A model generated the notes under the pieces. The model was not told where the DNA came from. It made no database searches and worked only from the letters and a program-made list of their open reading frames with translations. The position numbers were made by a program, and so were the translations under genes. From NCBI RefSeq assembly GCF_964204645.1, contig NC_134028.1:13647653-13711652 (forward strand): a stretch of 64,000 bases of DNA, given 5' to 3'. Of the stretch, positions 1,862-56,287 are shown piece by piece. Every line of letters starts with the position of its first letter. Position 1 is the first letter of the stretch. This DNA comes from Tubulanus polymorphus (lineage: Eukaryota > Animalia > Nemertea).

Positions 1862-2040
1862 CTGAAAATACAGACATTAAAAAAAGAAAATTACAATGAA
1901 TATGTGAAGGAAAATGTAGCTGCTAACCATAGATGACTTTTTTACTAGCATCACTGTTGGTATGTAAACTGTCGCAGGAAATTATTGAAATGAAGAATTT
2001 TTTCATCGTCGGGGATTCGAACCTAATACGATATTAAACG

Positions 2041-10360: not shown

Positions 10361-10366
10361 TTTCTC

Positions 10367-11880: not shown

Positions 11881-12024
11881 GAATCAATTGTACTTTTAAT
11901 AAATCGGGTATATTCCCCAAAATCAAAGCTAAAATAGTCATTATTTTTAACTATCATAAGCAAGTTATCAGCAGAACAACTTACCTGTGGTAAGCTGTCT
12001 GATGGTTCTATTTTCCTGATTTCT

Positions 12025-12950: not shown

Positions 12951-13836
12951 ATTATTCGTAGATCAGTAAATATATATCCAAGTACAACAGTTAATAACAG
13001 TAATCCAACAACAGTCGAAGAACTTAAATCCAATAGCTATTAAAAATCCAGTAACACACAAACACACAAGAACAGTTCCAGCAAACTGTGAGAAGAAACG
13101 ACTGATCTCCAGCGAAGCCAAATGCACACTGACTGGCGATACCACATGTGCTATCTCATGGGATTCTGTAGTGACCTAATTACTGGTGAGATAGAATTGG
13201 CTTACCCTGATCACATTTTGAAAATCGCTATTTCTAAGGCTAAACGTACTTTCTTCAATTCTAAACCTCCAGAAAATGAAAAACACATTTCAGAGTTCAT
13301 TGTAGTTCCGTATGTACCTGTTTTGGAAAAGTTTCGTCACTCTCTCCCTTTATTGGATAAACAAATCATTTTCACGTATGAAAACAAAATTAGTAAGACT
13401 TTGGTTAATCTAAACCTTTGGACTGCGGAGTTTACAAAATTCCTTGTTTTGGCTGTGATAAAATTTACTTTGGAGAAACTGGTCGTGATTTAAAAACTCG
13501 AATTTCGGAACACAAAAAGGATATAATAAATCAAAAACCGGTTAGTGGCGTAGCCAATCACGTTTGGAACACTGGTCATCGTTTTAATTTTGATAAAGCC
13601 GAAATTATTTATACTTCCAGCAATTACACTAAACGCCACATAGTTGAGTCTGCCCTAATTACTCGTCACTCAGATATTAGTACCAATTTAAATAATGGCT
13701 TTTCCCTGCAAAATTCCCTTCTTTCTAAGTATATTACTTCATGCCTTGCCAAACACTAATTATTTACTCACTCACCAATTTACTCAATTAACCTGTCCTC
13801 CTCTGAATATATACCCCTGTTTTTAGTCTATTTCTC

Positions 13837-15655: not shown

Positions 15656-16020
15656 TTAAATCAATTGAATATCCAATATAATTTCTTATTTATAACTTAA
15701 AATTATTAATTGGTGGAATAAAGGTTAAAAATCACATTCAGTTAAATTATAATTTTTTTGTGTACCGAATTGTTTAACATTTTTTAATGGTAAAATACTC
15801 AATATACTAGAATAACAAGTTGTACTTTTATTTGCTTCAAATGTTTTTTGTAGGATCAATGAATTTTCAATAAATATAAAATGTGTAAAAGGTATTAAAT
15901 TTGCTAAACTATCAACATTTGAATAATGTTTATCTGGGTTAATTTCTAACAGTTTATTTAGCTAAAGGTTTTTTATCTAAAAATTGATGTTATTATTATT
16001 AGCATGTAAAAACTATGTAC
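15655..16020 (-). pseudogene. Polinton penton gene fragment
   Basis: Reverse-complement homolog of about 38970-39300 (LIPFTHFIFI...SILSILPLKNVKQFGTQ). Confidence 0.7.
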
Positions 16021-16558: not shown

Positions 16559-16748
16559 CTAAAAATTAAGGGTTAAATGTACATTTATAACAGTTTCTAA
16601 TTATAGATTTAGAATGAGCACTCGACTGATCAACGAAAACAACGTAGACGATTCAAAGCGCTCACGAACGTTCGTCGGGTGAATCATGGTGAACCTTTGA
16701 TTTTAATACGGTCTCACGTTATGTTGATAACTTATATTGTCTACTTGC

Positions 16749-16839
16749 CGTAAATATAATTCATGTACTCCGCAAAACGCTGAAACTGGTTGCGTGCCGA
16801 TGTGGTACAAATTGAATCCATAACCAATGACGTGAATGC
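16749..16839 (-). CDS. Duox: Duox/NOX exon (GIHVIGYGFNLYHIGTQPVSAFCGVHELYLR)
   Basis: atttcag acceptor. Contains the second heme His, 14 residues after FHK. The best in-phase donor is CG|gcaagt (GC type). Confidence 0.75.
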
Positions 16840-16955
16840 CTGAAATAAATATTGTGATTGGAGGACCAATGGAGTATAAGGGAAGGGACAATATGGATGC
16901 ATTGCCTGGTTTGTAGGATTGTAGTGAAGGAAACCATACATATGTGTCAACATAC

Positions 16956-17186
16956 CAGTAAACATGAAGGCAATATATGCGATTATTTTGTGAAACGATA
17001 CACTCGCGTCAAATGGTATGAAAATATTTAAGAAAGTTTGACGTAAATAGGTTATCATATTGCGACACATCGTTAGAAGAATAAACGCATAACAATAGTT
17101 GATGCCCTCTGCTGCCGCTCTGGTAACTGCAAGTCCATATCCAGTAACCCTTCGCATTCCAGACTGTTCGCCTTCAACTGCAAAAC
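16956..17186 (-). CDS. Duox: Duox/NOX ferric reductase exon
   Basis: Translates GLAVTRAAA...ILLTMCRNMITYLRQTFLNIFIPFDASVSFHKIIA, the Duox LLTMCRN...PFD...FH signature. gtag acceptor, G|gtatg donor. Confidence 0.9.
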
Positions 17187-17408
17187 CTACGTACAGCAAA
17201 TTAATCACTTGCGAAGTGAATATTCAATTAAGTACGAATCGAATCTAGAAAACGTTTTTTTTATAGAAAGAAGTAACTACATGTATTTACAAGTTTCCAG
17301 TGCCATTCTGCCGTGATACCTAACAAAAAAGGCTTTTTGTATCAGATTTGCCTGTAGTAATTTAATATTAATCGAGAAATCCCGATTACAACCTAATTCA
17401 TGACTTAC

Positions 17409-31860: not shown

Positions 31861-32090
31861 TCGAATGAATTCTCGGGACCAGTGGGAGGTTGTCTGCAGC
31901 AGGCAGCAACCCGCTGGTCCGACCTTTTCGGAGACGGTTGGCCCTCCCGGGTCGTCTCTCGTGGCTACCGTCTCCGTTTCCTAAGGCGACTGCGCCTGAC
32001 GAGGTCACCTCCCGACATGCGGCCAAAACAAGGTCAGGAGGCCTTAATCACTCCGGCTCTCAAGGAATTGGCCGAGAAGGGAGCGATAGA
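31860..32090 (+). pseudogene. DIRS RT 5' part, cut by the Polinton
   Basis: PVGGCLQ...W...VVSRGYRLRF...ELAEKGAIE, continuing at 49089 as PVCNETSPGWFSRIFMVPK. Confidence 0.9.
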
Positions 32091-32175
32091 AGTAATTGGA
32101 AAAGTAGGCTTTCATACCAGAGGACGAGAGGACGAGACACCACTCATCACCACAAGTAATTTTTTTTCCTAATAA

Positions 32176-35100
32176 ATGGGAGAGAATGAACACCAGCCAG
32201 AAAATAATAATGTTAATAAAAATCAATATTATTGCCAATATTGTAAAAAATACGTCGATACATCTAATAAAACACGACATGAAAAAACTGCAAATCATAT
32301 AAAAAATGTAATAGATTTTGAAACTCCAGAAAATTCCAATGAAAGAAAAGAAAGATTAGAAAATATGAATGCGGATGAAATAAAATGTGAAGTTTGTAAT
32401 GAATTTTTAGTAAAAAGGAATTATAATAGACATCTCGAATCACAAAAACATTATAAAAATTTAAATAAAAATGTTTTAGGATCAGAATATTTTGATGATA
32501 AACCTCAACAAGTAAAAAAATCAACTTCAAAAACTAAATCCATTTCAAATAAACCTTACATGGAAAATGTTAGAAATTATATCGATACAATATCGATAAA
32601 ATTGAAATTTTAGAAACATTACATAGAAAAATTGGTCCTGCAGCCATTATATTTAGATTTTTTAAAGGTACAACAATAGAAGATTATAGTACATTTAATG
32701 AAATAATAGAAAAAAAATACTAGATTTGATAACAGATGTTGAATATCCAAAAGTTAGTATCTCTGGGAAAGTAAGTTTTATAAAGTCAGAAGAAAAAATG
32801 AATTATAATATTCAAACACACTCTGAAGAAATAATTTCAAAAACACAAATAAAAGAGAAGTTAGAAAAAATATTTAATGAATTTAAACGTCATATTGAAG
32901 AAAGATATTTTGAGGGTTCTGGCTTAACATTGAATGAAATTATATATTTAGATTTAAATGTTTATAATACAAAAAGAAATAAAACATCAAAAAGTGATAA
33001 AATGTTTAAAAATGATTTGCAACAAAAGCAGTAATAAATGTTCAAAATGAAGATAATAAATGTTTTCTATGGTCAATCATTAGTTGTTTACACCCAACAG
33101 AAGATATGACGCATAGTTTAAGAATAACAAATTACCGGAAATATGAAACATTATATAAAATTGATCAATATCCAGTAACTATAAAAATGATTCCTAAAAT
33201 AGAAAAAGTTAATAATTTAAAAATAAATGTATTCGAATTAATGCAATTACCAAAGACAAAAGGTGAAAATATTAAAGATTATACATTGGAAGCTTTATAT
33301 TTAACAGAATATTATGATGATGAAAATGCTATAGATTTGTTATATTACAAAAAAGATGAAAATGAACATTATATGTGGTTAAAACCAATTGATTTATTCT
33401 TTAGAACAGAAAGTGATCACCATAATAAAATTTATCTATGTAGAAAATGTTTATCTAAATTTATGACTGAGAATACATTATTAAAACATAAAGAATTATG
33501 TGATAATAAAGATTTTTGTAAATTAATAATGCCAACAAAAAAAGATTGTAAGTTGAAATTTACTAATCATAAATTTAAGAATATTGTTCCATTTGTAATT
33601 TATGGGGATTTTGAATCGTTGAATAAAGAATTAACTGATCAAGATAGAAAAGAAATATATAACAAAAAGCAATTATTAAAATCAATGGATAAAGGAAATG
33701 AATTAAATGAAGATATAATTCAAGACCCACCAATTATAAATACAATTAAAAAAGTTCATCAAAGAGCTGCTGCTTATGGAATTTACATAAAATCAAATTA
33801 TCCTGAATTATATGAAAGTCAATATATTTCTTTTAGAGGTGAAAATGTAGTTAATGATTTTTGTGACAAAATGATTGAATTAAAAAGTGATTTTGCAAAA
33901 TTATTAAACAAAAATAAAAGAATAGTTATGACAAAAGAAGATGAAATTGATTTTAATTATGCAACTCATTGTTGTTATTGTGAAAAACGTTTTTATTCAT
34001 TTGATAAAAAAGTTACAGATCATGATCATTTAAATTCAAAATATCGTGGAGCTGCTCATGAAGATTGCAATTTACAAGCTAAAAAAGTAAATTTCGTTCC
34101 AATATTATTTCATAATTTATCCGGCTATGATACCCATCTATTTATAAAACAATTATCAAAGAAATTGGGTACAATTAATCAAGAAATAGAAGAATATAAT
34201 GCTATGAATGAAGCAAATGTAAGAAAATATGATTTTAAACTATTAGCTAAAACATCTGAAAATTATATTTCATTTCAATTTGGTTGCATTAGATTTTTAG
34301 ATTCTTATAGATTTCTAGCAAGTTCATTAGATAATTTATCAAAAAGTTTAGTTGATAATGATTTTGTTATAACTCGATATTATTATCCAAATGACCAAGA
34401 TTTTAAATTATTGAGATATTAAGGCACAATTCCTTATTCATTTTATAAAACACACAATGATCTAATGTAACAGAATTATTAAAAGATCAATTTTATGATC
34501 AATTAAAAGAGGAGTATGTGAAAGACGAAGTGTTTAATAGAACATTAAATATTGGAACCATTTTAAGATGAAAAATCATGGTGAATTAGTTGATTTATAT
34601 TTAAAATCAGATGTTATGATATTAGCTGACATATTTGAAAAATTTAGAGAAGTTAATTTGAATCATTTTAATGTTGATCCTTGTTATTGCTACTCTAGTC
34701 CTGGTTTAACCTGGCAATGTGGTTTAAAATATACAAATGTAGAATTAGATTTATTAAAAGAAACAGATATTGTTTTATTATTTGAAAAATCAATTAGAGG
34801 TGGAATTAGTGGTGTTATGGGAGATATTTTAAAGCAAATGATGAATATAAACTATTATATATTGACGCCAATAATTTATATGGTTGGCCAATGATGCAAC
34901 CTCAACCATATAAAAATTTTATATTAACAGAAGTTGAAAATGATGATAAAACTAATTGGAAAAGCGCAGTAATGAGTTTAGAAGATGAAGCACCAATTGG
35001 TTATTTCTTTGTAGTTGATTAAGAATATCCTGAAAATATAAAGTTTAAAACAAGAAACTTACCTTATTGCCCAGAACATTTAACTGTAGATGATAGTTAT

Positions 35101-37179
35101 TTAAGTGAATACCAGAAGAAAATAAAACCGAAAGATCATGTTTTTACAGAAAAATTAATACTTACTCAAAATAATAAATACAATTATATTGTTCATTATA
35201 GAATGTTAAAATTTTATCTAAAACAAGGAATGAAATTAAAGAAAGTACATAGATATATTGAATTTAATCAATCGAAGTGGTTAGAAAAATATATAGATTT
35301 TAATACTCAACAGAGAACCATATCAAAAACAGATTTTGAAAAAGATTTCTTCAAATTAATGAATAATAGTTTTTATGGTAAAACATGTGAAAATATTAGA
35401 AATAGAAATGATATTGAATTAGTAAATAATTCTGAAAGATTAAGACATTTACAATCAAGTCCTAGACATTTAGGAAATAAAAGATTTGAAGATTATTTAA
35501 CAGCAGTTAAATTAAAAAGAACTTCAATGAAATTTAATAAACCAATATTTATAGGTTCAACTGTTTTAGAAATATCAAAATTATTAGTGTATGATTTTTA
35601 TTATAATGTTTTACAACCACTTTTTGGGGAAAAGCATATTGAAATATTATATTTTGATTCTGTAACAGCTGACACCCCAATATTATTAAAATGTAATAAT
35701 AAAATATTGGTAAGAAGATTTTCAGAAATAATTCCACAACAAAATGAATGTTATATTTCATATGGTGAAAAAGAATTAATACAAATAAATGGATTAATGG
35801 ATGTTTGGACAAGAAATGGATGGAAAAAATTAAAGAATATTATTAGGCATAAAACAAATAAGAAAATCTATAGAGTTAGAACTAAATTAGGATTTGTAGA
35901 TGTTACAGAAGATCATAGTTTAATAAAACAAAATGGTGATGAAATAAAACCAACTGATATAAAAATTGGAGATGAATTATTACATAAAAGATTTTTCCAA
36001 AGAATGAATCAAATGTCATTTGATGAAATTATTGATAATATTTATAATATAGAACCCAAAACATTAGAAGAAAAAGAATATTTTATCAAAGGATTTTTCA
36101 TGGGCGATGGTTCAGCAGGTGTGTATAATTATGTTTGGTGTAATAAATATTGTTGGTATTTATGCAATCAAGACTTAAAATTATTAGAAAGAATAAAGAA
36201 ATTCTGTGAAGAAGTTTATCCAAATAAAACATTTAAAATCATGGATGTTATGAAATCATCAGCAGTTTATAGAATACTTGTGAATAATCCTAAAGATTTT
36301 GCTATAAAATATAATGATGAATTCTATATTCATGCAATAGTAAAAAGTAATACTTCAACTAAAGAAAAGATAGTACCAGATTATGTATTAAATGCAAAAA
36401 ATAATTTAAGAAAATGGTTCTTCATTGGATTCTATGCCGCAGATGACACTACAAAATTTACAAAGGATAAAAAGATAACCTTTGCACAGAAAGGAAAAGT
36501 TGCTATATCAGGATTGAATATATTATGTAATTCATTAGGCTTCAATATGAATATTCGGTTGATTAAATCTAAACCAAATTGTTTTAATTTAAGGCATGTA
36601 GAAAAAGAATTAACAGAAGAAGTTAAAGATTTATTTGAAATATATAACCCAACTGACTATGTTTATGATTTATCAACAGATGATGGAACATTCAATTCTG
36701 GGTTCCCATTAATCCAAAAAAATACCGACAGTTACATACTAAAAATCAAGACAAATGACATAACAAAAGACTTAAAAACATTAAAACATCATTTTGATTT
36801 TAGCAATTATCCCAAAGATCATGAACTATTTAGCAATGATAATAAAAAGATTCCTGGTAAATTTAAAGATGAATTAGGGGGTGATGAAATGATTGAATTT
36901 GTTGGGATAAGAAGTAAAATGTATAGTTACAGAACAAAAGATCATGAAGCTAAAAAGTTAAAAGGAATAACAAAACATGTGGTTGATAAACATATAGAAT
37001 TTCAAGATTATATAAAGCGTTTATATAAATCAATTGTAATGAAACACAAAATGAATTGTTTAAGATCAGAAGATCATGAGATGTACATTAATGAAGTTGA
37101 AAAAACTAGTTTAAATCCATTTGATGATAAAAGGCATATTTTAGATGATGGTATAAAAACATTACCTTATGGTTATTAA
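32176..37179 (+). pseudogene. Protein-primed DNA polymerase B with N-terminal zinc fingers, OTU-like and endonuclease VII-like domains, and an intein; several stops and frameshifts
   Basis: C2H2-like fingers; DNKCFLWS at about 33050; YGDFES; DHDH...RGAAHEDCN; FHNLSGYD; FLDSYRF; DANNLYG; KLMNNSFYGKT; YFD/TDS; GKFKDE; KMYSY; FDDKR...TLPYGY. Confidence 0.95.
35659..36723 (+). mobile_element. Intein with LAGLIDADG homing endonuclease (355 aa) in pPolB motif C
   Basis: YFD|SVTADTPIL; block B VTEDHSL; FIKGFFMGDG and FIGFYAADD; block F VYDLSTDDGTF; end IQKN|TDS. Confidence 0.93.
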
Positions 37180-38492
37180 AACATAAAATCAATATCATCA
37201 TAATCGAAATCACTATTGGCTTCTTCATTTTCATTTAATTGTTCAGGTTCTTCTTCCATTCCATTTTTCTCATTTAAATAAAGTTCTATCTTGTTCCACA
37301 TTTCATCTCGCTCTCTTTGTTTCTTTTTGTTTGTTAATTCATCAAATGGAATTATAATATCTATGTTTAAATAACTTACAATCTTATTTAAAAAGAATTC
37401 ATAATTAATTGAATCTGTTATTCTATTTTCCAAATGATACAATAATATTTGTTTAAATATTTTTTTAATATTTTCCATATCTTCTTCTGTTAATTTAGGT
37501 TTTTCATAATAATCGTTAAATAATAAATATAAATACATTTTCTTTTCTTTTGTGTTAAATGTTGACGGAATAATTGTTTTTATAATATCTTTTTAAGTTA
37601 TTTCACCATTTTTATTTTCTATTATTTTCATTTTTTCAAGCCATTGCATATATTCTGGTGTATGATCTTCTATAGAAAATATTTTAAAAATTTCATCTAG
37701 ATAATTTAATTTTGGATCTATGAGAAAATTCCTAGTTTTTTCTTCACTCCATAAATTCTTTTGCCATCCACATTCATTACAAAATAACACAGTACCTTCT
37801 TGCCTTAAGGTCGCGTAACTACATTGGGGACATTTTCGTTTATAATTTATTGGTAATAGATCTTCATTAAGCTCTTGGTATTTTCTTACGTTTTCTTTAT
37901 GTTTTATTGTTCTATTATGTAGATTTGAATTACTTGTTGTAATAATCAATTTACAATATTTACAATAATATGTTTTTCTTGTTAATATATTATATTGTTT
38001 TTCTAACTTTTCAACTGTTTCTTTATTATCTGGTAACGTTTTCTCATATTTTATTTTTTCTAATAAATTATCTTTTCTTTCATTGAATTCAGTTTCAAAT
38101 TTATTAGAAATTTTATCTATATGTGCTTTACGAAATTGATGATTCTCCCAATCTTCTATATTTTCAGGGCTATATTTTATTCGACAAGGCTCACAGAAAT
38201 GATCTTTTATATTATCCTTGTCATAGAATAAGAAAGGTCTTTTCCAAATAACTTCAGGTTCAACTTCAACAGAATTACTATTACTTTCATTACTATCAAC
38301 ATTAGCCGTCGTGCCATTAATTTTACACTTCTCTGAATGTTTTTTAACATAATTTCTTGAGAATAATTTATCACATTTTGGGCAGTTTATTTTAGGGGGT
38401 TTATAATTTTCATCATGTTTTTTCGTATGTCGAGCCATATTACTTTTTCTTAGAAGTTCACCACAAATTTCACATGCTATCTTCTCATCCAT
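37176..38492 (-). CDS. Polinton multi-zinc-finger protein (ORFs 37593-38492 and 37176-37538 are probably one frameshifted gene)
   Basis: Repeated CxxC...H motifs (CEIC..RH..H, CPKC, CEPC, CKYC, CPQC..CNEC). Only the upstream ORF has the TAAATG start motif. Confidence 0.6.
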
Positions 38493-38560
38493 TTATTTAG
38501 GAAAAATTTTATTAAAATTAATTTTTAGTGATGAGCGGTAATTTTTTTATGTTATAAATA

Positions 38561-39349
38561 ATGGTAGAATTAAAAGAATACAGAATATTTGTTGATTCAA
38601 GAAGACTTACGAATTATAAATCACATGATTTATTAGTTCAATTAGATAGAGAATTTAAGAATTGTGTAGATTTAAAATTAGTTAATATAAGTTTATGTAA
38701 CTCTTTTTACAATATATCAGATAAAACTGATGAACATTGAAGCCTTTTTATTTTTGATAAGGATAAAAGAAAAAATTTTCAACTTATGCTTACACCAGGA
38801 TTATATAATTTAGAAACATTAGAGCAAGAAATTAATAGAAAAGCTCGCATTAGATAAGGTAGTGATTCTAAATTTAATATTAAATTCATAAAAAGTGAGA
38901 GCTCTAATAAAATTAAAATAAAGTTTGATAATGATTATTATAAACTTTATCAACATACAATAGAAAGATATCTTTACATGGTAAAAAAACCTATAGCTAA
39001 ACTGTTAGGAATTCCTCCAGATAAAGATATTAGAGAAAACATATACGGTAGATCGAACTTAATACCTTTTACACATTTTTATATTTATTGCAATTTAATT
39101 GACCCAACAAAAACATTTGAAGCAACTAAAGATATAACTTGTAATTCTAGTATATTAAATATTTTACCATTAAAAAATGTTAAACAATTTGGAACGCAAA
39201 TAAATTATAATTTAACAGAATGTGATTTTAAACCTTGCATTCCTAAATTTAATAATTTTAAATTAGAAATAAGAAATCATAATGGATACTTAATTGATTT
39301 GAATAACTTTCCTGTGATATATGAATTAATTATAAGATGTAAAGAGTAA
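38561..39349 (+). pseudogene. Probable minor capsid (penton) protein, frameshift near 38950
   Basis: IFVDSR...NSFYNI...PGLYN...FYIYCNLI...ILNILPL...LEIRNHNG.LIDL...V.YEL.IR, a Polinton penton-like pattern recognised by eye. Confidence 0.7.
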
Positions 39350-39365
39350 TTTTTTCATTATATAA

Positions 39366-39725
39366 ATGAATATAACTGTTGGACCGAGTATATGTTTTGG
39401 GTTTGATTTTAAACGTGAGAAAGAAATTAAATTTAACATTAATGATGTAATTACACATATCAAAAATATTGCATTTTCTAATGAAACAACATTTGAGTAT
39501 GAAACAACAATAGATAAAGAAACTTTTAATGTAGAAAAGATTACTAATTTAATTAGAGAATCTTTAAGATTTTATGAATTAGATGAAGATTTTATCATCG
39601 ATGATATAAAAAAAATAATAATTGAAATATATACAAATGAAACTAGTAATGAAATAAATGTTGAATTAATCATCACTAAGATAACTAAATATTTTGAAGA
39701 TAGTAATTTTTTGATTAATAAATGA
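39366..39725 (+). CDS. Polinton hypothetical protein (119 aa)
   Basis: Open ORF with the shared T-run/TAAATG start. Confidence 0.6.
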   Translation: MNITVGPSICFGFDFKREKEIKFNINDVITHIKNIAFSNETTFEYETTIDKETFNVEKITNLIRESLRFYELDEDFIIDDIKKIIIEIYTNETSNEINVELIITKITKYFEDSNFLINK

Positions 39726-39943
39726 GTGATAATAAGTGGATAATAACTGGATTATATAATGGAGCATTACTATCAGTTGGAACTGTTGGTTATTCAATGG
39801 TATTAAAAAAAGTATTCAAAATGGGAAGTGTTAATGTTGATAGATTTGATATCAATGATATTTTAAAATTAACATTAGCAGTTACTTTATCTAATTTAAC
39901 AATTGATTATTTGGAAAAACAAAAATATATTCCTCCCATATAA
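39722..39943 (+). CDS. Polinton small hydrophobic protein (73 aa)
   Basis: Two hydrophobic segments; TAAATG start overlapping the previous stop codon. Confidence 0.65.
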   Translation: MSDNKWIITGLYNGALLSVGTVGYSMVLKKVFKMGSVNVDRFDINDILKLTLAVTLSNLTIDYLEKQKYIPPI

Positions 39944-39967
39944 ATGCATAATTTTTTTGCTAAATAA

Positions 39968-40323
39968 ATGGCTTCTGCAATTATAACTATTATAGGATCG
40001 GCAATTGTTAACGCTTTTGCATTTGCTGGTGGTGGTTATTTATTTAAACATATTGATAAAAATGGATCATTAACAGAACAAAAAAGACATAACTTAGCAT
40101 TAGAGAAATATGATAACGCTGCAGAAGAATATAGAGAAAAGAGACAAAACTATAAACTAACAGTTTATATAACGCGGTAACCAATAAAGAAAAATTACAT
40201 CTATACAAACCTAAATTATCAGATTATTATACCCCAAGTAAAGAACAACAGAAATATGAAATAATATGGATTTTAGGCGGAACTGTTATTGTTATATTTG
40301 TTGCTTATAAATTTACTAATTAG
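39968..40323 (+). pseudogene. Polinton small membrane protein (disrupted)
   Basis: N-terminal hydrophobic MASAIITIIGSAIVNAFAFAGGGYLF; C-terminal TM IIWILGGTVIVIFVAYKF in another frame. Confidence 0.6.
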
Positions 40324-40342
40324 TAATTTTTTTTCTAAATAA

Positions 40343-40777
40343 ATGGAAGATAAAGTTGATAATAATGATATTATTCCTCATGATATAAATAAAACTAAAT
40401 TAAAAACATATTTAGAAAAACAAATATTAGAATTTGAAAGTGACTTTAAGAAAAAAAAGAAAAAATATTTAAAAAGTAAAATTATATATTATTTGATTAT
40501 AAGTGGTTCGGTTACAATTAGTTCTGTAATAACATTTTTAGCAATATTCAGCTCATTAACACCTTTAGCTATATCAATTGGCGTATTAGGATTAAGTTCA
40601 AGTGTTTTAACTGGTATAAGTTCAAAATTAAATATAAAAAGTAATAAAGAAAAAATTAAAACTAATATAAAAGAAATTAATAAATAAAAGAACACACTAG
40701 ATTATATAATAAGTTTAAATGGTCATATAACAGTTGAAGAACAAGATAAATTATTAAAAGAATTAATAAATTATTAA
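40343..40777 (+). pseudogene. Polinton 2-TM protein (in-frame stop at 40685)
   Basis: Two hydrophobic helices. The frame continues KNTLDYIISLNG after the stop, as in the homologous fragments. Confidence 0.65.
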
Positions 40778-40793
40778 TTTTTTAATTATATAA

Positions 40794-42182
40794 ATGGTAG
40801 ATAGTTTTCCAAAAGCTTTCCAATATAATAAATCAATTAAATATAATATTCCAGCAATAGATTTTAATAAAGATATTACATATAGAAATGAAGTTTTAGA
40901 TTCATTAACTAATTTAGAAATTTATGTTACTGAAACTAATAATTTTAATGCAAAGATGGAAAATATATTTCATGTATATTTAATTGATTTTAAAAAATTG
41001 AAAGATGAAAAACAATGGTTATTAAAATCTAATATGAAGTATTGGCAGAACCAATTAAATTTAGCTGTTTATTGTGCAACAACAGGTTGTGGAATTAGTT
41101 GGAATGATCATTTGAATAATTCTAAATATAAATTAATTCAAAGTTTATTTAGATTTCATACATACTTTCAAATAAGATTAATATTAAATGAATTAGAGTG
41201 TCCTTTACCAGGATCTAGGTATTTTAATAAATTAGATAATAATATTAATTTGTCAAAGTTTTATAAAATTTGTAATGAATTTAATATAGATATAAATAAT
41301 TCTGATTTTAGAACGAAAATTGGAACAATAAGATCACTTCCTTGCCCTAAAAAGATTGCAGAATATTGTGCACTTCCCATACCATCTAATAGTTTTTATA
41401 ATATCTATAATAATAATTTAAGTTATGGTAAAATAGAAACTAAGGATTTAGAAACATTAAATTTCAATAAATTACCGACATTTTATGATAATTTAAAACA
41501 AGAAAACAATAATGGTTGGGTTTATTTCATTTTAGAAAATAGTGAAGGTTTTACTAAATCAGGTATAGAAAGAATAAATCAATCTATTAGAACTTATTTG
41601 ATATGTATTTTAGGTGCGCAAGTTGAAACGAGATCCCCAATAATTGGAAATTTAAATACATCATTTGATACACAGAAACAATTCAAAGTATTATTTGAAG
41701 ATTCAATTCATAATGATAAAAATAGATCGATTCCGGAAAACATTGTAAGATATCAAAATTATTTAGATAAATCTCATGTAAGACTAAATTATTGCATAGG
41801 CCCTAATCTATTAACTATTTCTAATGATTTAGTATTAAAGATGGGAAACATAATTGGTTATAATAATCTAATTAAAACTGCAACAATAAATAATTCATTT
41901 GGATTGAATGATATAAATAATAAGATAATTTCTGCTCCAAAATTAATGGAAGGTGAAAAAAATAAAAAACATATTCAATCAACAGAAACTAAAACTAATA
42001 ATATTAAATTAAATAATGATTCTAAAATAAAAGATTACAATACATCAGAAAATATTAGAACTGATAAAATTCAACATGAAATAATTAAACTAAATGATGA
42101 TAATAAATCCCATGAAAATACTAAATTAGCTTTAACTTGTATAGGAATTGTAATCGGAGGAAAATTATATTTTAAATTTTAA
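40794..42182 (+). CDS. Polinton hypothetical protein (462 aa) with a C-terminal hydrophobic anchor
   Basis: Intact long ORF; WQNQLNLAVYCATTGCGISW block; function not recognised. Confidence 0.75.
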   Translation: MVDSFPKAFQYNKSIKYNIPAIDFNKDITYRNEVLDSLTNLEIYVTETNNFNAKMENIFHVYLIDFKKLKDEKQWLLKSNMKYWQNQLNLAVYCATTGCGISWNDHLNNSKYKLIQSLFRFHTYFQIRLILNELECPLPGSRYFNKLDNNINLSKFYKICNEFNIDINNSDFRTKIGTIRSLPCPKKIAEYCALPIPSNSFYNIYNNNLSYGKIETKDLETLNFNKLPTFYDNLKQENNNGWVYFILENSEGFTKSGIERINQSIRTYLICILGAQVETRSPIIGNLNTSFDTQKQFKVLFEDSIHNDKNRSIPENIVRYQNYLDKSHVRLNYCIGPNLLTISNDLVLKMGNIIGYNNLIKTATINNSFGLNDINNKIISAPKLMEGEKNKKHIQSTETKTNNIKLNNDSKIKDYNTSENIRTDKIQHEIIKLNDDNKSHENTKLALTCIGIVIGGKLYFKF

Positions 42183-42198
42183 TTTTTTTATTATATAA

Positions 42199-43632
42199 AT
42201 GGATGTAGAAGGTGGAGAAGATATTAGAATGGATCCTTTTGATGAACCTGGTATAAGTGATGAACAACCACCTGATTTTGATGAAACAAGTTTTAATGAT
42301 GGTAATGAGCACGGATATAATAATAATTTAAATATGCCTGATTATATTAAAAATGCAGAATCACAATTAAATCCTGAAAATTTAGACCCAGGTTTAGTAA
42401 AAGAAGATTTAGATAATTTAAACAAAATACCTAAATTAGAAGATTTAATTGAAAAATCTAAACTTAACATAAATGATGAAGACGTTGGACTTTTAGCATA
42501 TCAATTAAAATTTTTAGATAATGGTAAATGTTATTATCGTTTGAAAGGTGATTATTATATTGATATCACTTCCAAAAATAATAAAAAAATATTAGCGGAA
42601 TCAACTTTGAAAAGTTTAAAACCAGATAAAATTAAAAGAATAAGTAATAGTTATGAAATAACTGATGTTACACAAAAAGAAATAGATGATAATATAGACG
42701 TATTTAAACAAAGAATTAATGAATTATTTGAAATAATCAAATAGAAATCAGAAACAGAAACAACTTCTGAACAGAATATAACTTCCAAAACTAGTAAACT
42801 TAAATCAAATAAAGTTTCAATTGAAAAACTTTTACCGAATGGATTAATTGATGCAACAGATCAACAATTAGAAGATTTAAATATATTTTCTGATGAAGCA
42901 ATTAGAGAAATTATTAGTATAAGAAATGAAGCTGATAAAATTGCACATAATAAAAGTATAAGAGATCAAAAAATTATGTATTTGGAAAAAGAATTAACTA
43001 ATGCAAATAAAGAAATAGAACAACTAAAGTCTGATTTAGATCATCAAGTAATTGATGAAATAGAATATAGGCAAAAAGAATTACGTTTAGAAAAAGAAAT
43101 TAATAATTTAAAAGATAATTTAGAAGTACAAGAAGAAGAAATTAAATTATTATTAAAATCATATGATTATAATATTAATAGATTAAAAGTTATTTTTAAA
43201 GATTTGTTGATTAAACCAAATTCTGAAATATCATTAAAAGATAGAATAAAGTTATTATTTAAATTAGAAGGAATAACAATTCTTTCAATTCTAACAGCTG
43301 TAACTATGTTATTTACAACAATTGGTTTAGCAATATCAAATGCTTTAAAATCTACTCCTACTCCCAATAAACCAGATAAACCCCCAGATAATAATTCTAT
43401 ACAAGATAAAGTTAAGGATGGTTTAAAGAAATTAGCAAAATATTTATGGGAACTATCTAAAAAATCTGCTGCAGCATTGCCAGGAGTTATTGCATCAATT
43501 GTTGGTTTTATATTGAAATCTGCAGGAAACATTATTAACTTTGCTGCTGAACATATTATTTTATTTTTAATTACAGTTGTAAGTGCTATTATTTTTGGTT
43601 TAGTAAATATGATATCAAAAAATATCAAGTAA
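42199..43632 (+). pseudogene. Polinton coiled-coil, multi-TM protein (one in-frame stop at 42742)
   Basis: ORFs 42199 and 42976 share a frame with no further stop between them. Acidic N-terminus, coiled coil, 2-3 hydrophobic helices. Confidence 0.7.
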
Positions 43633-43672
43633 ACATGATCAAAAATAAATAATTAATTTTTTTGTTATATAA

Positions 43673-44919
43673 ATGAGTGGGAGTTATATCAATCCTTCTA
43701 GGAATCATAGAATATCTAATGCTATTAAAGCAGAAAGATCACATCATATAATTACTCATAACCCTTCAAATATTAATCCCGATGAAACTTTATATGTTAG
43801 AATTCCTAGATTAACACAAAATACTTTTTATGTTCCAAATAGTATTTATTTATCAGCCGATATAAAAGTAACGGGCCATGATAACAATTATGTTGTTGAT
43901 AATGTTGGGAGATATTTGATTAAAAAATTAACTATAAAGATTGGTCCAGAAACAGTTTTCTCATTAGATGATTATAATTTATTTATGCATTATAAAGATT
44001 TATGGTTAACTAAAGAAAATAGAAATAATATGATATTTCAAGGAATCCAATCAGAAAACCATAATAAATTAAGATCAGGAGCTAATGACGCAATAGTAAC
44101 TCGTGCCACAGATAATTTGATTAAAAAGATTTATGGAAGCAAATGTAAAATTCCATTAGACTTTGAATTGATAAATAATAATGCACCTTTATATAAATAC
44201 GCAATTCAAGAAGATATTATATTTGAGATAACATTTGCTCCTGTAAATGAAATTGTATTATCTAGCGTTGTTAAAGATATGGGTTATAAATTATCGAATA
44301 TATGTTTAGAATATAACACAGTAACTAATGAAAATATTGCTAGCACAATTCAAACTCAATGCAATCAAGGATTTTCATTATTATATGATTATATTGATAA
44401 ATTTAAAACTGTAACTATTAATGCAAATGATGAAATAATTAATGAGAATATTAACTTCCCAAGAAGATCTATTAAAGGTATATTAATATTTTTTACCATT
44501 GCAACATATACTAATGGTGCAATAAATGTTGATAATTATTATAATCCTGAAATAACAAAAGTAGAAATAACTATCGAAGGAATAGCAAATAAAATATTTT
44601 GTCAAGGAATGAGAATGATAGATCAATGGCCAGAAATTAGAAAACATTTTATGAATGAAAAAGTAAAATCATCTGAAAATTGTAATACTAATCAAATTGA
44701 TTATTATACCGGTAATAAATATGCATTATGGTTAGATTTTAGAACAACAGAGGATAATTCATTACATGGTTCTGGGAAAAATTACAAAACACTAAAGATG
44801 GAATACAATTATTCATGAAAAAGAAAAAAGGAAGCCTAAATTTCAAAATGCACATTTATATTATATCTGACGCGCAATTAAATATTGTAAATTCACAGTT
44901 AGATAGTATTCAATATTAG
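43673..44919 (+). pseudogene. Probable major capsid protein (frameshift near 44780)
   Basis: About 415 codons, beta-rich pattern, located just before integrase and ATPase; second copy at 4355-5370. Fold assignment is inference. Confidence 0.65.
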
Positions 44920-44949
44920 AAATATAAAGTTAAAATTAACGATATATAA

Positions 44950-46077
44950 ATGGGAGGTAAAAAAACTCTTAATACTAAAGAACAATATATAAGAAATTTA
45001 TATTACAACCCTGAGAGTTCGGTTGCTTATTCTTCTACCAAAAATATATGGCGTCAAGTAAAACAAGATAAATTAGATAAGATAATCCCACAAAATTTAG
45101 TTAAAAATAAAGATATAAATGAATTTATGTTAGAACAACCAACATACACAACACATAAAAAAATTGTTAGAAAATATAAAACTCGTAAAACTATGGTAAG
45201 TTATGTAGATCAACAGTGGCAAGGAGATTTAATTGATATGAAAAATGTTAAGAAAGGCAATGATGATTATTGGTGGTTATTGAATATAATTGATATTTTT
45301 AGTCATTATGTATGGAGCTTCCCACTTTATAGAAAAGATGCTGTACAAACATCAAATGTTTTAAGAAAATTTCTTTCGGATGATAAACTAAAACCAGAAA
45401 AAATACAATTTGATGATGGAAAAGAATTTGATAATTCACTTGTTCATGAACTCTTAGATAATCATAATATTAAATATTTTTCAACAAAATCGGATAAAAA
45501 AGCAGCAGTTGTTGAACGATTTAATAGAACATTAAGAACAAGAATGTGGAAATATTTTACAGCCAATAATACTTTTAAATGGATTGATGTTTTGCCAAAA
45601 TTGATAGAAGGATATAATAATTCTTATCATTCTTCTATTGGAATGAAACCTATTGATGCTAGAAAACCTGAAAATGCTGAAATTGTTTGGAATAATTTAT
45701 ATGGAGCATTTCTTGTAGATGATTTTGGTGAACCTAAATTTAAAGTTGGTCAAAATGTTAGAATTTCTAAGTATAAAAAGATATTTGATAAAGGATACGA
45801 TCGAAATTTTACCAGAGAAATATATAAAATAAAAAAAGTAATAACAACAAAACCATATGTCTATAAATTAGAAGATTTAGATGGTGAAGAAGTTGATGGC
45901 TACTTTTACGAAGAAGAATTAAGTTTAACTACTGAAAATCTAGAACAAGAGTATAAGATTGAAAAAGTATTAAAAACAAAAACTACTAAAAGAAAAAAAT
46001 ATTCTTTAGTAAAATGGGTTGGATGGCCAGATAAATTCAATGAATGGATATTATCAAGTAAAATTAAAAATATATAA
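44950..46077 (+). CDS. Retroviral-like integrase with a C-terminal chromodomain
   Basis: QWQGDLIDM, IDIFS, IQFDDGKEF, VERFNRTL, YN...HSSIGMKP; chromodomain YKIEKVL...LVKWVGW...NEWI. ORF intact. Confidence 0.95.
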   Translation: MGGKKTLNTKEQYIRNLYYNPESSVAYSSTKNIWRQVKQDKLDKIIPQNLVKNKDINEFMLEQPTYTTHKKIVRKYKTRKTMVSYVDQQWQGDLIDMKNVKKGNDDYWWLLNIIDIFSHYVWSFPLYRKDAVQTSNVLRKFLSDDKLKPEKIQFDDGKEFDNSLVHELLDNHNIKYFSTKSDKKAAVVERFNRTLRTRMWKYFTANNTFKWIDVLPKLIEGYNNSYHSSIGMKPIDARKPENAEIVWNNLYGAFLVDDFGEPKFKVGQNVRISKYKKIFDKGYDRNFTREIYKIKKVITTKPYVYKLEDLDGEEVDGYFYEEELSLTTENLEQEYKIEKVLKTKTTKRKKYSLVKWVGWPDKFNEWILSSKIKNI

Positions 46078-46677
46078 ATGAATAAGGAATTATTTATATT
46101 TGAGCCTCATAATATGTTAATTTCTGGCGTAACAAATTGTGGAAAAACTTATTTTATATTAAATTTATTAGAAACTGTTTATGAAAACTATTTTGATAAT
46201 ATAGTATTATTTTGCCCAACCTATGAATTTAATCAAACTTATAATAGAAATATTACTAGAAATAATAAATTTATTATATTAGATCCTAAAACAGTAAAAG
46301 ATAATTGTATAAAAATAGCAATTGATATTTATAAGGGATCAAATACATTATTCATTATAGATGATTGTGCTAATCTACATGATTCAAAAGTTAGAGAAAG
46401 TGAGTTATGTTATTTAGCTTTTTCTGGCAGACATTTTGGGATAACAACTTGGGTTTTAAATCAAAAATATAATTCAATTGTTAAAGATTTTAGGGAGAAT
46501 ATAAGATTTCTAGTTTTATTCTACAATAAAGATAGAAAATCGATGAAAAATGCACTTGAGAAAAATGATATTATTCCACATGATTTACATAATGAATATA
46601 TGGATAAGTTGAAAAATATTAAAAGATCAAAATTACTATTTAGATTACAACACCCATTTACATATGAATTTATTTAA
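46078..46677 (+). CDS. A32/FtsK-like DNA packaging ATPase
   Basis: Walker A GVTNCGKT, Walker B FIIDD, GRH motif, Q...REN. Confidence 0.92.
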   Translation: MNKELFIFEPHNMLISGVTNCGKTYFILNLLETVYENYFDNIVLFCPTYEFNQTYNRNITRNNKFIILDPKTVKDNCIKIAIDIYKGSNTLFIIDDCANLHDSKVRESELCYLAFSGRHFGITTWVLNQKYNSIVKDFRENIRFLVLFYNKDRKSMKNALEKNDIIPHDLHNEYMDKLKNIKRSKLLFRLQHPFTYEFI

Positions 46678-46680
46678 ATT

Positions 46681-46950
46681 CAACTGGCTTATTAATCTAG
46701 TTGAATTCTAGTTACGTTCTAGTTGAATTCTAGTTATTGGTAGTTGGAACAAAAATCAACTAGATTTAACAATATTTTAACTAGCTTGTTAATCTAGTTT
46801 AATTCTAGTTACATTCTAGTTGAATTCTAGTTGTTAGTAGTTGGAACAAAAATCAACTAGATTTAACAAGAAATAAACAAAAACAACAGTATTTCAACTA
46901 GCTTGTTAATCTAGTTGAATTCTAGTTACATTCTAGTTGAATTCTAGTTG
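46681..46950 (+). repeat. CTAG-rich tandem repeat inside the Polinton
   Basis: Three copies of aactagcttgttaatctagttgaattctagttacattctagttgaattctagtt. Confidence 0.9.
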
Positions 46951-46981
46951 CAACAACACAATTAATTTTTTTGTTATATAA

Positions 46982-47569
46982 ATGGGAGGTGAAAAGAAAA
47001 TAAAATCTAAAAATGGTGATGTTCCAATTGAAAAAACTTTAGATGATTTAGGAATAACAGAAAACAAATTAATTCCAGATGATGGTGCTTTAAATAATGT
47101 TACAACAAATAATAATTATGAATATTATCTTTATTGTAAACATCAATTAGAAATATTAATAGCATCTGGAAAATGTAAAAATTTTGTCGGTAAAAATTTA
47201 ACTTATAATGAATTAGATACAATGAAATCAGATGAAATTATTAGATTATTTAAGATTTATGAAGCCGCGAGAACAGCTAGAATTAATGACGCGATATCAG
47301 AAAATGTAGTAAAAGGTTATAGTAAATTATGTAATTATATACGTCCAATTGAAGATGAAAATAGATTATATTCCGATTTAAAAAATGACTATTTAGTTAT
47401 GACTGAATTAAATAAATGGATTGGATATTTATCATTTCAATTAGGCGGATTTATGACATTATTATCAACTGGGGTTATAACATTTTCAAATATTGAAAGT
47501 AAAAATATTTCTATAATAAATGAGCGAGGTGAAAGAAGTGAAGGAATTTACTGTGAAGAAAAAACCTAG
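46982..47569 (+). CDS. Polinton hypothetical protein (195 aa)
   Basis: Intact ORF with TAAATG start; homolog fragment at 3440-3650. Confidence 0.7.
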   Translation: MGGEKKIKSKNGDVPIEKTLDDLGITENKLIPDDGALNNVTTNNNYEYYLYCKHQLEILIASGKCKNFVGKNLTYNELDTMKSDEIIRLFKIYEAARTARINDAISENVVKGYSKLCNYIRPIEDENRLYSDLKNDYLVMTELNKWIGYLSFQLGGFMTLLSTGVITFSNIESKNISIINERGERSEGIYCEEKT

Positions 47570-47888
47570 ATCACAGAAACAAATTGAATGGTCTCGGCAA
47601 TTAGGAATTAAATCACAAGAATATAAAAAAGCTGTAAAAGAAAAAATAAGTAATAAAAATGTTAATAAAAATAGTGAAAATATTGTTATTTCTACTCCTT
47701 CTGATAATAGAATATTTGATAAATATTTATATTTTACAGTTGGATTTGTAATTGTATTCATTTTGATTGGGTGTAATTGGTATAAGAAATCAAATAAAAT
47801 TCATGATATTAATAATTCTGAAACAACTGCTATTAAAAATGAAAATAGTTCTGAAATTCCAAAATTGATAATAAAAAAAATGGATTAA
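47520..47888 (+). CDS. Polinton basic single-TM protein (122 aa)
   Basis: KKKPRSQKQIEW N-terminus and TM YLYFTVGFVIVFILIGC; homolog at 3095-3440. Confidence 0.7.
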   Translation: MSEVKEVKEFTVKKKPRSQKQIEWSRQLGIKSQEYKKAVKEKISNKNVNKNSENIVISTPSDNRIFDKYLYFTVGFVIVFILIGCNWYKKSNKIHDINNSETTAIKNENSSEIPKLIIKKMD

Positions 47889-48062
47889 TATTTTAGAAAA
47901 AAGCAAAAAAAATAATTTTTTTTTAATTAATTGAATATCTCACTACTTTTGTCTATCACTGTGTGGGTGCTGTTTATGGCACCATCTATGCGGAGCAATT
48001 AAATTGTCCAGATAAGTCATTTCGGATTCTAGATATTCATTATTTTTATTATTTTATTTTTT

Positions 48063-48389
48063 TAAATTTTATCAACAATTTCTAAATCATGATGTCCATC
48101 TTCATTTTTTCCATGATATATTATTTTAAATCCTTCTAAATCTTTTAATTCCTCTGTACTCAATGAAACCCATTTATCAGGTAAAAATACTTTAAAATCT
48201 CGCGATGTACTAACATTACAGTAGCTTTAAATAGCTGATACTTTCTGTCCATATTTAGTTTTTATCTTTTCTAATTTCAATATTTTATGTTCAATTTCTT
48301 TTCATCAACTAACTTTTTTATTTCAAATTGTTTTTTGCTGGTTTTATTCTGTTATTTATTGTTGCTAAGAATGCTTTTCTATCTCCCAT
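48063..48389 (-). pseudogene. Polinton small protein (MGDRKAFLA...), disrupted
   Basis: TAAATG start; homolog at 2588-2910 with the same KIKTKYG...VF/AFLP.KWVSL...MY/IYHGKNEDGHHD sequence. Confidence 0.6.
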
Positions 48390-48524
48390 TTATTAGGAAA
48401 AGAAATTACTTGTGGTGAAGAGTGGGGATTACTTCCCCTTGTATATAACAAACACGCTATTAACCGTTCTCACCCAAGCTTCACAGCATCTATTAGGAGC
48501 AGTAATTATAACTGTCCAGATAAG

Positions 48525-48746
48525 TCATTTCGGTTCCTTGATATCAAATTCCTCAACGTATTGTTCATTATTTGGATCATTTTGGATCATCCATAATTCA
48601 ATAAATTTCTTTGCCTTTGTTAACTGTTCTAAATATAACTGTAAATCTAGTTTATTAGATTTGATTTGATTTTCTTTCTTTTCTAAAGGCCGTAAATTTT
48701 TCCAACCCCACATAAGTTTTTTATTGTATTCATCATTCCTTTCCAT
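48525..48746 (-). pseudogene. C-terminal fragment of an HNH-type endonuclease
   Basis: WKNLRPLEKKEN..KS.K; homologous to the longer copy at 55690-56287. Confidence 0.6.
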
Positions 48747-49088
48747 TTATAAGGAAAACAAATTACTTGTGGTGATGAGTGGGGATTACTTCCCCTGTAT
48801 ATAACAAACACGCTATTAACCATTCTCACCCAAGCCTCACAGCATCTATTTATCCGGGTACAGTTGACACGCAATCACTGTACTACAGTAATAGCACACG
48901 CGTTAATAACCGTTCTCAGTAGAGACTCACTGTATCAATCTATCCACGCGCAGCTGTTGTTACGCGGACTCACTGTATATGTGTGTCACAGAGCAATCGT
49001 CCGTTCTCACTAGAGCCTTGCTGTGATGAGTGGTGTCTCGTCCTCTCGTCCTCTGGTATGAAAGCCTACTTTTCCAATTACTGATAGA

Positions 49089-55689: not shown

Positions 55690-56287
55690 AAATGTTCAAA
55701 GTGTGAATTAAGTCAACAATCTTCAGAATATTATAACGATAAGACTAAGAAAGATGGTAAGCAAAGTTATTGAAAAAGTTGTAAACAAGTATATATGAGA
55801 GATTGGAAAAAAAGATAATAGAGAACATGTTAAACCGTATCAAAATAATTATCATAAAGAAAAATATCAAACAGATCTTACTTTTAAATTGAAACAATGT
55901 TTAAGATCTAGATTAACGTAATTATTCAATAGAGAAACGCATTCAGTTACACTATCTAATTTGTTGGGTTGTTCAGATGAATTCTTAAAATCATGGATAA
56001 TATATCAGTTTGATGATAAAATGAATCTAAATAATTACGGAGATTATTTCCCCATTGATCATGTTTTACCAATATCGAAATTTAACATGAATTATGATTA
56101 CAATAAAAAGCTAATTTGGAATCAGAAGAATTTAAGACCTCTTGAAAAGAAAGAAAACATGAGTAAATCTGACAAACTAGATTTACAATTATATATAGAT
56201 CAGCTGGTTAAAGTAAAGACATTTATTGAATTATGGAATAGTTCACCACAGAATGAATCGTACACTGAGACTTTAATCAGCTGTTAG
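55690..56287 (+). pseudogene. Decayed HNH-type endonuclease resembling those of large DNA viruses
   Basis: KKCSKC...KDG.QSY..SC; LRSRL; LGCS..FLK.WI..QF...MNLNNYG...IDHVLPIS.F...NLRPL...EN.SK. Confidence 0.7.

Follow-up and report, generated by a model that had tools for sequence, protein, structure and literature searches.

The 64,000-nucleotide stretch of the nemertean Tubulanus polymorphus that we analysed (contig NC_134028.1, positions 13,647,653 to 13,711,652; hereafter the window, whose own numbering is used throughout) carries a Polinton of 16,992 bp at 32091-49082. The element is AT-rich (24% GC), begins with AG, ends with CT, and is flanked on both sides by the 6-bp target duplication GATAGA. 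Nearly all of its genes start with TAAATG, often preceded by a run of T residues, and one of them encodes a protein resembling the poxvirus late transcription factor VLTF3. We propose below that this lineage probably is a satellite that would rely on a poxvirus-like helper's late machinery for its transcription. A sequence-only reading of the same DNA had recognised a 17-kb Polinton, which is borne out by the 66-nt inverted repeats, the 6-bp duplication and the Polinton core genes; it had overlooked the VLTF3-like gene, as well as the breakage of most genes in this copy. The features of the element are the following:

32085..32090, + strand: left target-site duplication GATAGA, with an identical 6-mer at 49083-49088
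32091..32156, + strand: left terminal inverted repeat, 66 nt, 97% complementary to 49017-49082
32140..32189, + strand: sub-terminal block with a T-run/TAAATG start; inverse copies at 48382-48425 and 48733-48782
32176..37179, + strand: protein-primed DNA polymerase B with a zinc-finger N-terminus and an endonuclease-VII-like insert; several stops and frame changes; presumed start at 32176
35659..36723, + strand: 355-amino-acid (aa) intein with a LAGLIDADG-type domain, in polymerase motif C between YFD and TDS
37176..38492, - strand: poxvirus-type VLTF3/A2-like gene, 438 codons with one in-frame stop; start T5..TAAATG
38561..39349, + strand: candidate minor capsid protein, conserved Polinton core gene; 2 stops; start T7..TAAATAATG
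39366..39725, + strand: 119-aa open reading frame (ORF) with a TAAATG start; its N-terminus is common to clade locus L038
39722..39943, + strand: 73-aa hydrophobic ORF, with its own T-run/TAAATG inside the end of the upstream gene
39968..40320, + strand: small conserved Polinton core gene; one frame change; TAAATG start
40343..40777, + strand: two-helix membrane protein gene; weak SLATT-like match (E 0.006, below cut-off); one stop; TAAATG start
40794..42182, + strand: conserved Polinton core gene, 462 aa, open; TAAATG start
42199..43632, + strand: conserved Polinton core gene with a hydrophobic C-terminus; one stop; TAAATG start
43673..44919, + strand: jelly-roll major capsid protein (MCP) gene; frame change near the C-terminus; TAAATG start
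44950..46077, + strand: retroviral-type integrase with chromodomain, open; rve E 4e-10 (above cut-off), Chromo E 5e-5
46078..46677, + strand: A32-like packaging ATPase, open; Pox_A32 E 3e-11; the TAA of its TAAATG is the integrase stop codon
46679..46989, + strand: 97-bp repeat in three copies, between the ATPase and the next gene
46982..47569, + strand: conserved Polinton core gene; TAAATG start
47520..47888, + strand: clade-only gene, 122 aa; TAAATG start
48062..48389, - strand: broken clade-only gene, homologue at L038:125-469; TAAATG start
48525..48746, - strand: HNH-type endonuclease gene reduced to its C-terminal third, preceded by a copied TAAATG block; 55% identity to the complete gene of clade locus L039
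49017..49082, - strand: right terminal inverted repeat, complementary to 32091-32156
49083..49088, + strand: right target-site duplication GATAGA

By gene content the element is a Polinton, whose core genes it has in common with 65 other loci. The polymerase is read in three frame blocks, 29-58% identical to intact polymerases of 1,211 and 1,476 aa (P0056 and L096), and matches PF03175 weakly. The structural model of the capsid protein (pLDDT 77.5) gave double jelly-roll capsid proteins as top fold matches, with E-values down to 3e-10; the truncation of the ORF leaves its second jelly roll poorly modelled. The relatives of this protein are Polinton-like elements, with a virophage capsid 45th in the fold search, a bivalve hypothetical protein (41%) as the nearest named protein and no relative among viral contigs. 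The product of 38561-39349, conserved in 22 loci, is probably a minor capsid protein, which in Polintons is a single jelly roll; its best PDB profile match is weak (E 0.75). A protein atlas search returned no match. Pfam found no protease over the 21 ORFs of the element and 25 further clade or related proteins, and no RNA polymerase or capping enzyme over the 21 ORFs; a PDB sequence search with three unassigned ORFs found no poxvirus polymerase subunit. Most group 1 Polintons encode an adenovirus-type maturation protease, and several core ORFs of the element are without assignment. The lack of RNA polymerase and capping genes had been read from the sequence as a sign of a large DNA virus partner. 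The genes are indeed missing from the Pfam results, but this is uninformative because, to our knowledge, Polintons in general do without them. The 97-bp repeats at 46679-46989 contain internal palindromes (CTAG and GAATTC), and the clade member L038 has a deoxynucleoside kinase gene behind TAAATG (L038:10340-10981, - strand; Pfam dNK E 2e-31). A clade-only family of 280-430 aa also adjoins the capsid gene in three loci (L039:2461-3687, L040:1748-3043 and L041:2287-3120), with no match in Pfam, nor in NCBIfam, PHROGs or PDB for the members tried.

The element is one of many diverged copies of a multi-copy family. Genomic reads under the same species label (1,934 Mb), mapped over all but the right-hand ~1.1 kb, cover it at a depth of 105-800, most of them 90-99% alike, and at the left end 492 reads exit into mixed flanks. 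Its insertion target is a GC-rich retrotransposon with a reverse-transcriptase match (RVT_1 E 6e-13) and, by eye, a tyrosine-recombinase-like ORF; on these two grounds we presume it to be DIRS-like. Stops or frame changes interrupt the polymerase, capsid, VLTF3 and minor-capsid candidate genes and several others, so that this copy must be regarded as dead. With polymerase, capsid and VLTF3 broken, it cannot by itself act as an antiviral element. A possible RNA run matched the element in two 20-nt pieces only.

Within the element, 15 of 16 curated genes start with TAAATG, the sixteenth with TAAATAATG, and a run of at least five T precedes the start of 11 of the 16; the background is 6.9% of ATGs. 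The integrase, the ATPase and the gene at 47520 have TAAATG but no clear T-run. Thus, the shared T-run plus TAAATG announced by the sequence-only reading at nearly all starts holds for TAAATG, and for the T-run in 11 of the 16 genes. A strict pattern (at least five T, 3-9 nt, TAAATG) occurs 12 times, whereas 300 dinucleotide shuffles gave a mean of 1.67 and a maximum of 6; three of the starts (32176, 48389 and 48746) are not independent, because they lie within copies of one 44-50-bp sub-terminal repeat. The motif puts a T at position -3. Among the four signals put forward by the earlier reading, only this start motif carries weight.

We then compared the motif across relatives. A capsid alignment served to retrieve them: of 159 confirmed metagenome loci the best 80 were taken, together with 3 loci on genome contigs; the 16 loci with a capsid identity of at least 50% are called the clade, and 65 other Polinton loci form the out-group. 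In the clade, 55 of 65 ORF starts have TAAATG, on both strands and at 20-44% GC, compared with 4/353 in the 65 other loci and 1/40 in the 11 AT-rich loci among them. For orthologous core genes alone, TAAATG stands at 33/42 starts in the clade, at 1/276 in the out-group and at 0/46 in AT-rich Polintons. Position -3, a T in the clade, is a purine at 202 of the 276 out-group starts. The motif also holds in clade members at 36-44% GC and TAAATG is not enriched within coding regions. The MCP phylogeny called for by the earlier reading was run as a quick tree (60 rows, none with fewer than 280 aligned residues): one clade unites the window with 14 loci, with a Shimodaira-Hasegawa-like approximate likelihood ratio (SH-aLRT) support of 99, and 14 of these 15 rows are motif-positive. 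The fifteenth, L069, scores negative, yet it has TAAATG 4 nt before its in-frame start. Two distant loci, L117 and L115 (33-39% capsid identity), have TAAATG at 6/6 starts and no T-run; L117 is an unplaced long branch in the capsid tree and L115 lies outside the tree rows, and their motif may go back to a separate origin or mean that the trait is rooted deeper. The motif is thus restricted to one capsid-defined clade, plus these two unplaced relatives.

Among clade starts, T is most frequent at positions -14 to -11 relative to the ATG. The vaccinia late promoter is described as T residues, a 5-7-bp spacer and TAAAT(G/A) overlapping the start site (PMC5294985), and the clade motif matches it in shape, which makes it a putative promoter. 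TAAATG stands at 13 of 35 starts in two entomopoxvirus stretches (41 kb) and at 54 of 422 starts in giant-virus polymerase loci. Clade coding regions (L038-L050 and the window) are poor in homopolymers, with 5 runs of at least six T against 25.8 expected and 18 runs of at least seven A against 47.3 expected, a stronger avoidance than in AT-rich relatives or entomopoxvirus DNA. It may reflect a slippage-prone polymerase. The depletion of T5NT, considered as a motif-specific signal, was rejected as part of this general avoidance. Out-of-clade loci (among L051-L120) have in common a different word, TTTGAAC(A), some 40 nt ahead of their core-gene starts; TTGAAC occurs in 40 of 276 out-group starts against 6 expected, a count inflated by near-duplicates, and each Polinton lineage may have a private promoter. 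Three loci (L118, L119 and L120) are Polinton capsid genes within bacterial or archaeal genome bins, a placement that is probably contamination from eukaryotic DNA.

The VLTF3-like protein consists of a zinc-finger array, a four-cysteine zinc ribbon and a cyclin-like helical domain. Its C-terminal ORF matches PF04947 (Pox_VLTF3) with an E-value of 1.3e-6 (28.7 bits, cut-off 25); a 224-aa read-through scores 25.0 bits, and for the complete one of 438 aa no match was listed. Pfam's own A2L ribbon model gave no match to the Polinton VLTF3 protein, PDB sequence searches gave no VLTF3 match, and the VLTF3 alignment had no relative among viral contigs. In a phmmer search of 1.84 billion proteins, five matches were obtained: the homologues P0196-P0198, an unrelated zinc-ribbon repeat protein, and P0200. 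The start of P0196 is near-identical to an ORF of L038, and P0197 and P0198, to judge by their architecture, come from such Polinton elements. P0200 (E 1.9e-4) is the sole non-Polinton VLTF3 found in this way; it has 226 aa, carries both poxvirus A2 Pfam domains, is 62% identical to an entomopoxvirus VLTF-3, and aligns with all four ribbon cysteines invariant. A profile built from the four Polinton sequences scored 34.8-55.1 bits on 38/38 poxvirus A2 proteins of a selected set and 22.7-41.9 bits on further entomopoxvirus-type A2 proteins, while 70 giant-virus VLTF3 proteins reached at most 20.5 bits. Polinton VLTF3 and poxvirus A2 also have in common the motif [NS]-Y-x-F-[FY]-L-x-K-I. No VLTF3 match above 10 bits was found in the 351 kb of the 65 out-of-clade loci, which are mostly fragments, 9 of them being at least 10 kb long.

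Two VLTF3 trees were computed, one of 35 rows after removal of near-duplicates and one of 20 rows without the long-branch P0198. In the second, Polinton and poxvirus rows lie on one side of a branch supported at 99/95, and two alternatives that break this branch were rejected (p about 0.03). The best trees put the Polinton proteins beside, not inside, the Poxviridae (84/59 and 94/92); grouping them with either poxvirus subfamily was not rejected (p about 0.2). In a viral fold search with the model of the domain (37179-37850, - strand; pLDDT 72.6), cowpox and two entomopoxvirus VLTF3s ranked 1, 2 and 5, and B385R of African swine fever virus ranked 30th. The best solved structure for this model is TFIIB, with a middling Z of 7.3, and poxvirus A2 itself, on modelling grounds, may be TFIIB-like. 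Altogether, the sequence comparisons show a poxvirus affinity for this putative factor.

The two other signals of the sequence-only reading, the intein and the HNH gene, lead elsewhere. The intein is present at the polymerase motif-C site as announced, the same site as in giant-virus polymerase inteins, with Ser first, Asn last and Thr at +1. TIGR01445 matches above cut-off; Intein_splicing (E 8e-6) and LAGLIDADG_3 (E 1e-3) are both below the Pfam cut-offs. Its nearest relatives are in other Polinton-type polymerases (40-75%). The intein tree has 38 rows, 11 further candidates having been set aside because no pattern delimited their ends. Its 13 Polinton rows group together (support 99), surrounded by viral rows and with three giant-virus bins as their sister group (89). 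This topology shows one old exchange with an aquatic giant virus, common to several Polinton lineages. Thus, the affinity to large DNA viruses that had been sought in the intein tree exists with giant viruses and not with poxviruses, and the intein was rejected as poxvirus evidence. Read depth over the intein (154-233) is near that of its flanks (~250), suggesting that most copies carry it; an empty allele also exists, seen as a contig joint that skips the intein and as an intein-less polymerase fragment at ~14000-15640 of the window. The HNH fragment likewise is there, but its family is not confined to the large DNA viruses with which it had been associated: 2 of 10 giant-virus records contain a member, as do 12 phage records. 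It is therefore a general mobile gene, and was also rejected as poxvirus evidence; no relative of it was found among viral contigs. For HNH, kinase and intein, the comparison with poxviruses spanned 41 kb of entomopoxvirus DNA and the A2 loci. A second HNH-type copy, nearly full-length with one stop, lies outside the element at 55862-56242 (+).

The rest of the window contains older related Polinton fragments of 74-87% identity (about 1-1120, 2040-3650, 4380-5370, 6880-7190 and 14000-15975), which include the intein-less polymerase and a TAAATG start at 3440 (-). Dual-oxidase-like exon ORFs were found at 1443-1922 (-) and 16741-17223 (-), the second with an E-value of 3e-18, as would fit an animal host, and the repeats found around them may be intronic. 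Two retrotransposons, DIRS-like by eye and with reverse-transcriptase, RNase H and recombinase-like ORFs, occupy 9010-12951 (-) and 29700-52000; the latter houses the Polinton and is itself high-copy.

How could a Polinton come to use a poxvirus-type start motif together with a poxvirus-type factor? Virophages carry the late promoter of their helper (PMC6723459), and co-occurrence with entomopoxviruses is reported for Polinton-like viruses (PLVs; PMC11296320). We consider it probable, on the strength of the sequence comparisons, that the lineage is a satellite whose genes a poxvirus-like helper transcribes with its late machinery. Once the helper has infected the cell, its RNA polymerase would begin transcripts within the TAAAT of the element; these mRNAs would lack a templated leader and acquire one of poly(A). 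Such is the case of vaccinia late mRNAs, which start in TAAAT and receive an added poly(A) leader. The unusual T at -3 would be explained in this way. The polymerase, ATPase and capsid proteins of the element would make particles, and the zinc-finger-extended VLTF3 would either draw the helper polymerase to element promoters or act as a competitor of the helper's own A2. On reaching germ cells, such particles would be inserted into the genome by the integrase, leaving many decaying copies. The helper would then likely be an unsampled poxvirus-like lineage, because the VLTF3 lies outside, or at the base of, the known poxvirus sequences. The earlier suggestion of poxvirus-type transcription thus finds support in the clade-specificity of the motif and in the VLTF3, and none in the intein, the HNH gene or the absent polymerase. 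The gene exchange with a large DNA virus suggested at the same time is seen with an aquatic giant virus through the intein, and neither intein nor HNH extends it to a poxvirus.

More tentatively, this animal Polinton clade may be made of integrating poxvirus virophages that have all their genes wired to poxvirus late transcription and whose captured, zinc-finger-extended A2 hijacks or jams it. Its sequences would then be the trace of a deep-branching, so far unsampled poxvirus lineage of invertebrates other than insects, and intact copies could be an inducible antiviral defence, as mavirus is in protists. If true, virophage life would extend, in its gene regulation, to animals and poxviruses. 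The class of the helper could be predicted from a 20-bp motif and one factor, with 5′ poly(A) leaders as the predicted RNA signature. It would also point to undiscovered poxvirus-like viruses and to a possible natural inhibitor of poxvirus late transcription.

Several points weigh against the proposal of a poxvirus-dependent satellite. Transcription, its start sites and the helper are all inferred from sequence. Poxviruses are cytoplasmic, and the waking of a nuclear copy is unexplained. The VLTF3 gene was seen in 4 distinct sequences, not in every clade member, and its identity to poxvirus proteins is low (22-27% over the domain, ~37% over 74 residues). The 38 poxvirus A2 rows scored by the profile had been fetched with a poxvirus-shaped motif and hence form a selected set. 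The VLTF3 trees are unrooted, have long branches, and contain no asfarvirus, egovirus, iridovirus, mriyavirus or other Polinton/PLV rows; moreover, the model of the second tree favours long-branch joins. The clade loci include near-duplicates and amount to about four sub-lineages, not 16 independent cases. Avoidance of AATAAA did not separate clade from out-group, nor did avoidance of splice donors; short head-to-head gaps are not clade-only (19-30 nt in six clade pairs, often 30-66 nt in the out-group), and the T-run depletion of clade coding regions is matched by the A-run depletion. Finally, the intein points to aquatic giant viruses rather than to poxviruses.

The read depth of 105-800 and the many insertion sites would also be expected of an autonomous nuclear transposon. 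In this alternative, the chief competitor of the satellite proposal, a nuclear virus would have captured both the poxvirus-type factor and the promoter, and its own TFIIB-like VLTF3 would steer host RNA polymerase II to TAAAT with no helper. Whether animal Polintons are autonomous or helper-dependent is said to await experiments (PMC5499653), and coral Polintons are reported to be transcribed in an ordered fashion (PMC11131425). High copy number suits nuclear autonomy, the VLTF3 domain model best matches TFIIB, if only at Z 7.3, and the added zinc-finger array could bind element DNA. Late transcription of vaccinia, however, requires the viral polymerase and two more viral factors, and neither a vaccinia-type polymerase nor the two further late factors were found in the element. 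Initiation by polymerase II in TAAAT would also leave the AUG without a leader. Moreover, since the VLTF3 gene itself starts with TAAATG, something else must first switch it on. We hold such autonomy to be unlikely. Were the helper instead a different large DNA virus, resembling asfarviruses, egoviruses or giant viruses and using a TAAAT-like initiator, the poxvirus look would be a matter of convergence or old exchange. The nesting of the intein among giant-virus polymerase inteins, the HNH relatives in giant-virus bins and the position of Polinton VLTF3 outside both poxvirus subfamilies in the best trees would all suit it, and asfarvirus late promoters are also reported to be bipartite with an AT-rich initiator (PMC5294985). 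Yet giant-virus loci have TAAATG at only 54/422 starts, their VLTF3 scores far below poxvirus A2, B385R comes only 30th in the fold search, and the intein is also found in Polinton lineages not shown to have the motif. We judge such a helper quite unlikely.

The motif could also be something other than a promoter, namely a translation or 3′-end signal: an in-frame stop upstream, a T-run that terminates the preceding gene, a TATA box or the poly(A) signal AATAAA. AATAAA or TATAAA is indeed found within some instances, T-runs frequently come after the upstream stop, and runs of at least six T are depleted in clade coding regions. Nevertheless, the motif also precedes genes with no upstream gene on the same strand, such as the first gene after the terminal repeat and the two members of each of six head-to-head pairs. 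A TATA box would place transcript starts past the conserved ATG, a T at -3 is a poor translation context, and T-runs are not regular, by eye, after convergent gene ends. As the main explanation, the TATA-box and poly(A)-signal readings were rejected on the transcript start and on the motif's presence without an upstream gene; we regard the whole group as very improbable. That chance or AT bias produced the motif is scarcely credible: an element of 24% GC invites the thought, but it contrasts with the 12 occurrences against 1.67 in shuffles, the 0/46 in AT-rich relatives, the members at 36-44% GC that keep the motif and the lack of TAAATG enrichment in coding regions.

In its relations to known systems, the finding is well supported as a sequence pattern, and the biology drawn from it is inferred. 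With the Polintons or Mavericks (Polintoviricetes, “adintoviruses”), as these are described in PMC8502044 and 10.64898/2026.06.19.733378, the element shares polymerase B, rve integrase, A32 ATPase, a jelly-roll capsid, terminal inverted repeats, the 6-bp target duplication and the 17-kb size. It differs from them in that Pfam found no maturation protease, and by its clade-wide TAAATG starts, its poxvirus-type VLTF3 and its splicing-type intein at motif C. VLTF3 has been reported in a subset of Polintons and PLVs and read as exchange with large DNA viruses (PMC11131425, PMC8502044). In the sections of these papers that treat it, that VLTF3 is giant-virus or mimivirus-like and not tied to a promoter, whereas here a poxvirus-type factor comes with a matching motif. 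Searches of open-access literature listed no title or abstract opening that treats, for animal Polintons, TAAAT promoters, a poxvirus-type VLTF3 or inteins at motif C.

The small Polinton-related AHEV_PLV1/2 and CBEV_PLV1 were proposed to be hyperparasites of poxviruses that exchange genes with them (PMC11296320). According to the main text of that report, they were found in occlusion bodies, encode a protease and have no rve integrase; this main text does not mention promoter, TAAAT, VLTF3 or intein, and the supplement may bear on the point. Compared with these entomopoxvirus PLVs, the element would add a regulatory link and has an rve integrase and many genomic copies, and its helper is a putative one. 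Mavirus and Sputnik have a helper-type late promoter before all or most of their genes (PMC6723459), and the element is alike by sequence match. Mavirus also has a protein-primed polymerase and an rve integrase, and integrates (PMC6723459). These virophages differ by their protist hosts, Mimiviridae helpers, the CroV motif TCTA and a virophage-class capsid, and their helper dependence is experimental (PMC6723459), that of the element putative. The element is not filed as a taxonomic virophage (Virophaviricetes), a class marked by a virophage-type capsid protein and a cysteine protease. Finally, with the poxvirus late promoter and VLTF-3 (vaccinia A2) it shares the T residues, the short spacer and TAAAT(G/A), as well as the zinc ribbon and helical domain. 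The Polinton protein differs from vaccinia A2 by an extra N-terminal zinc-finger array of ~210 residues and the low domain identity given above, and, unlike in poxviruses, it comes without the other late factors or the polymerase.

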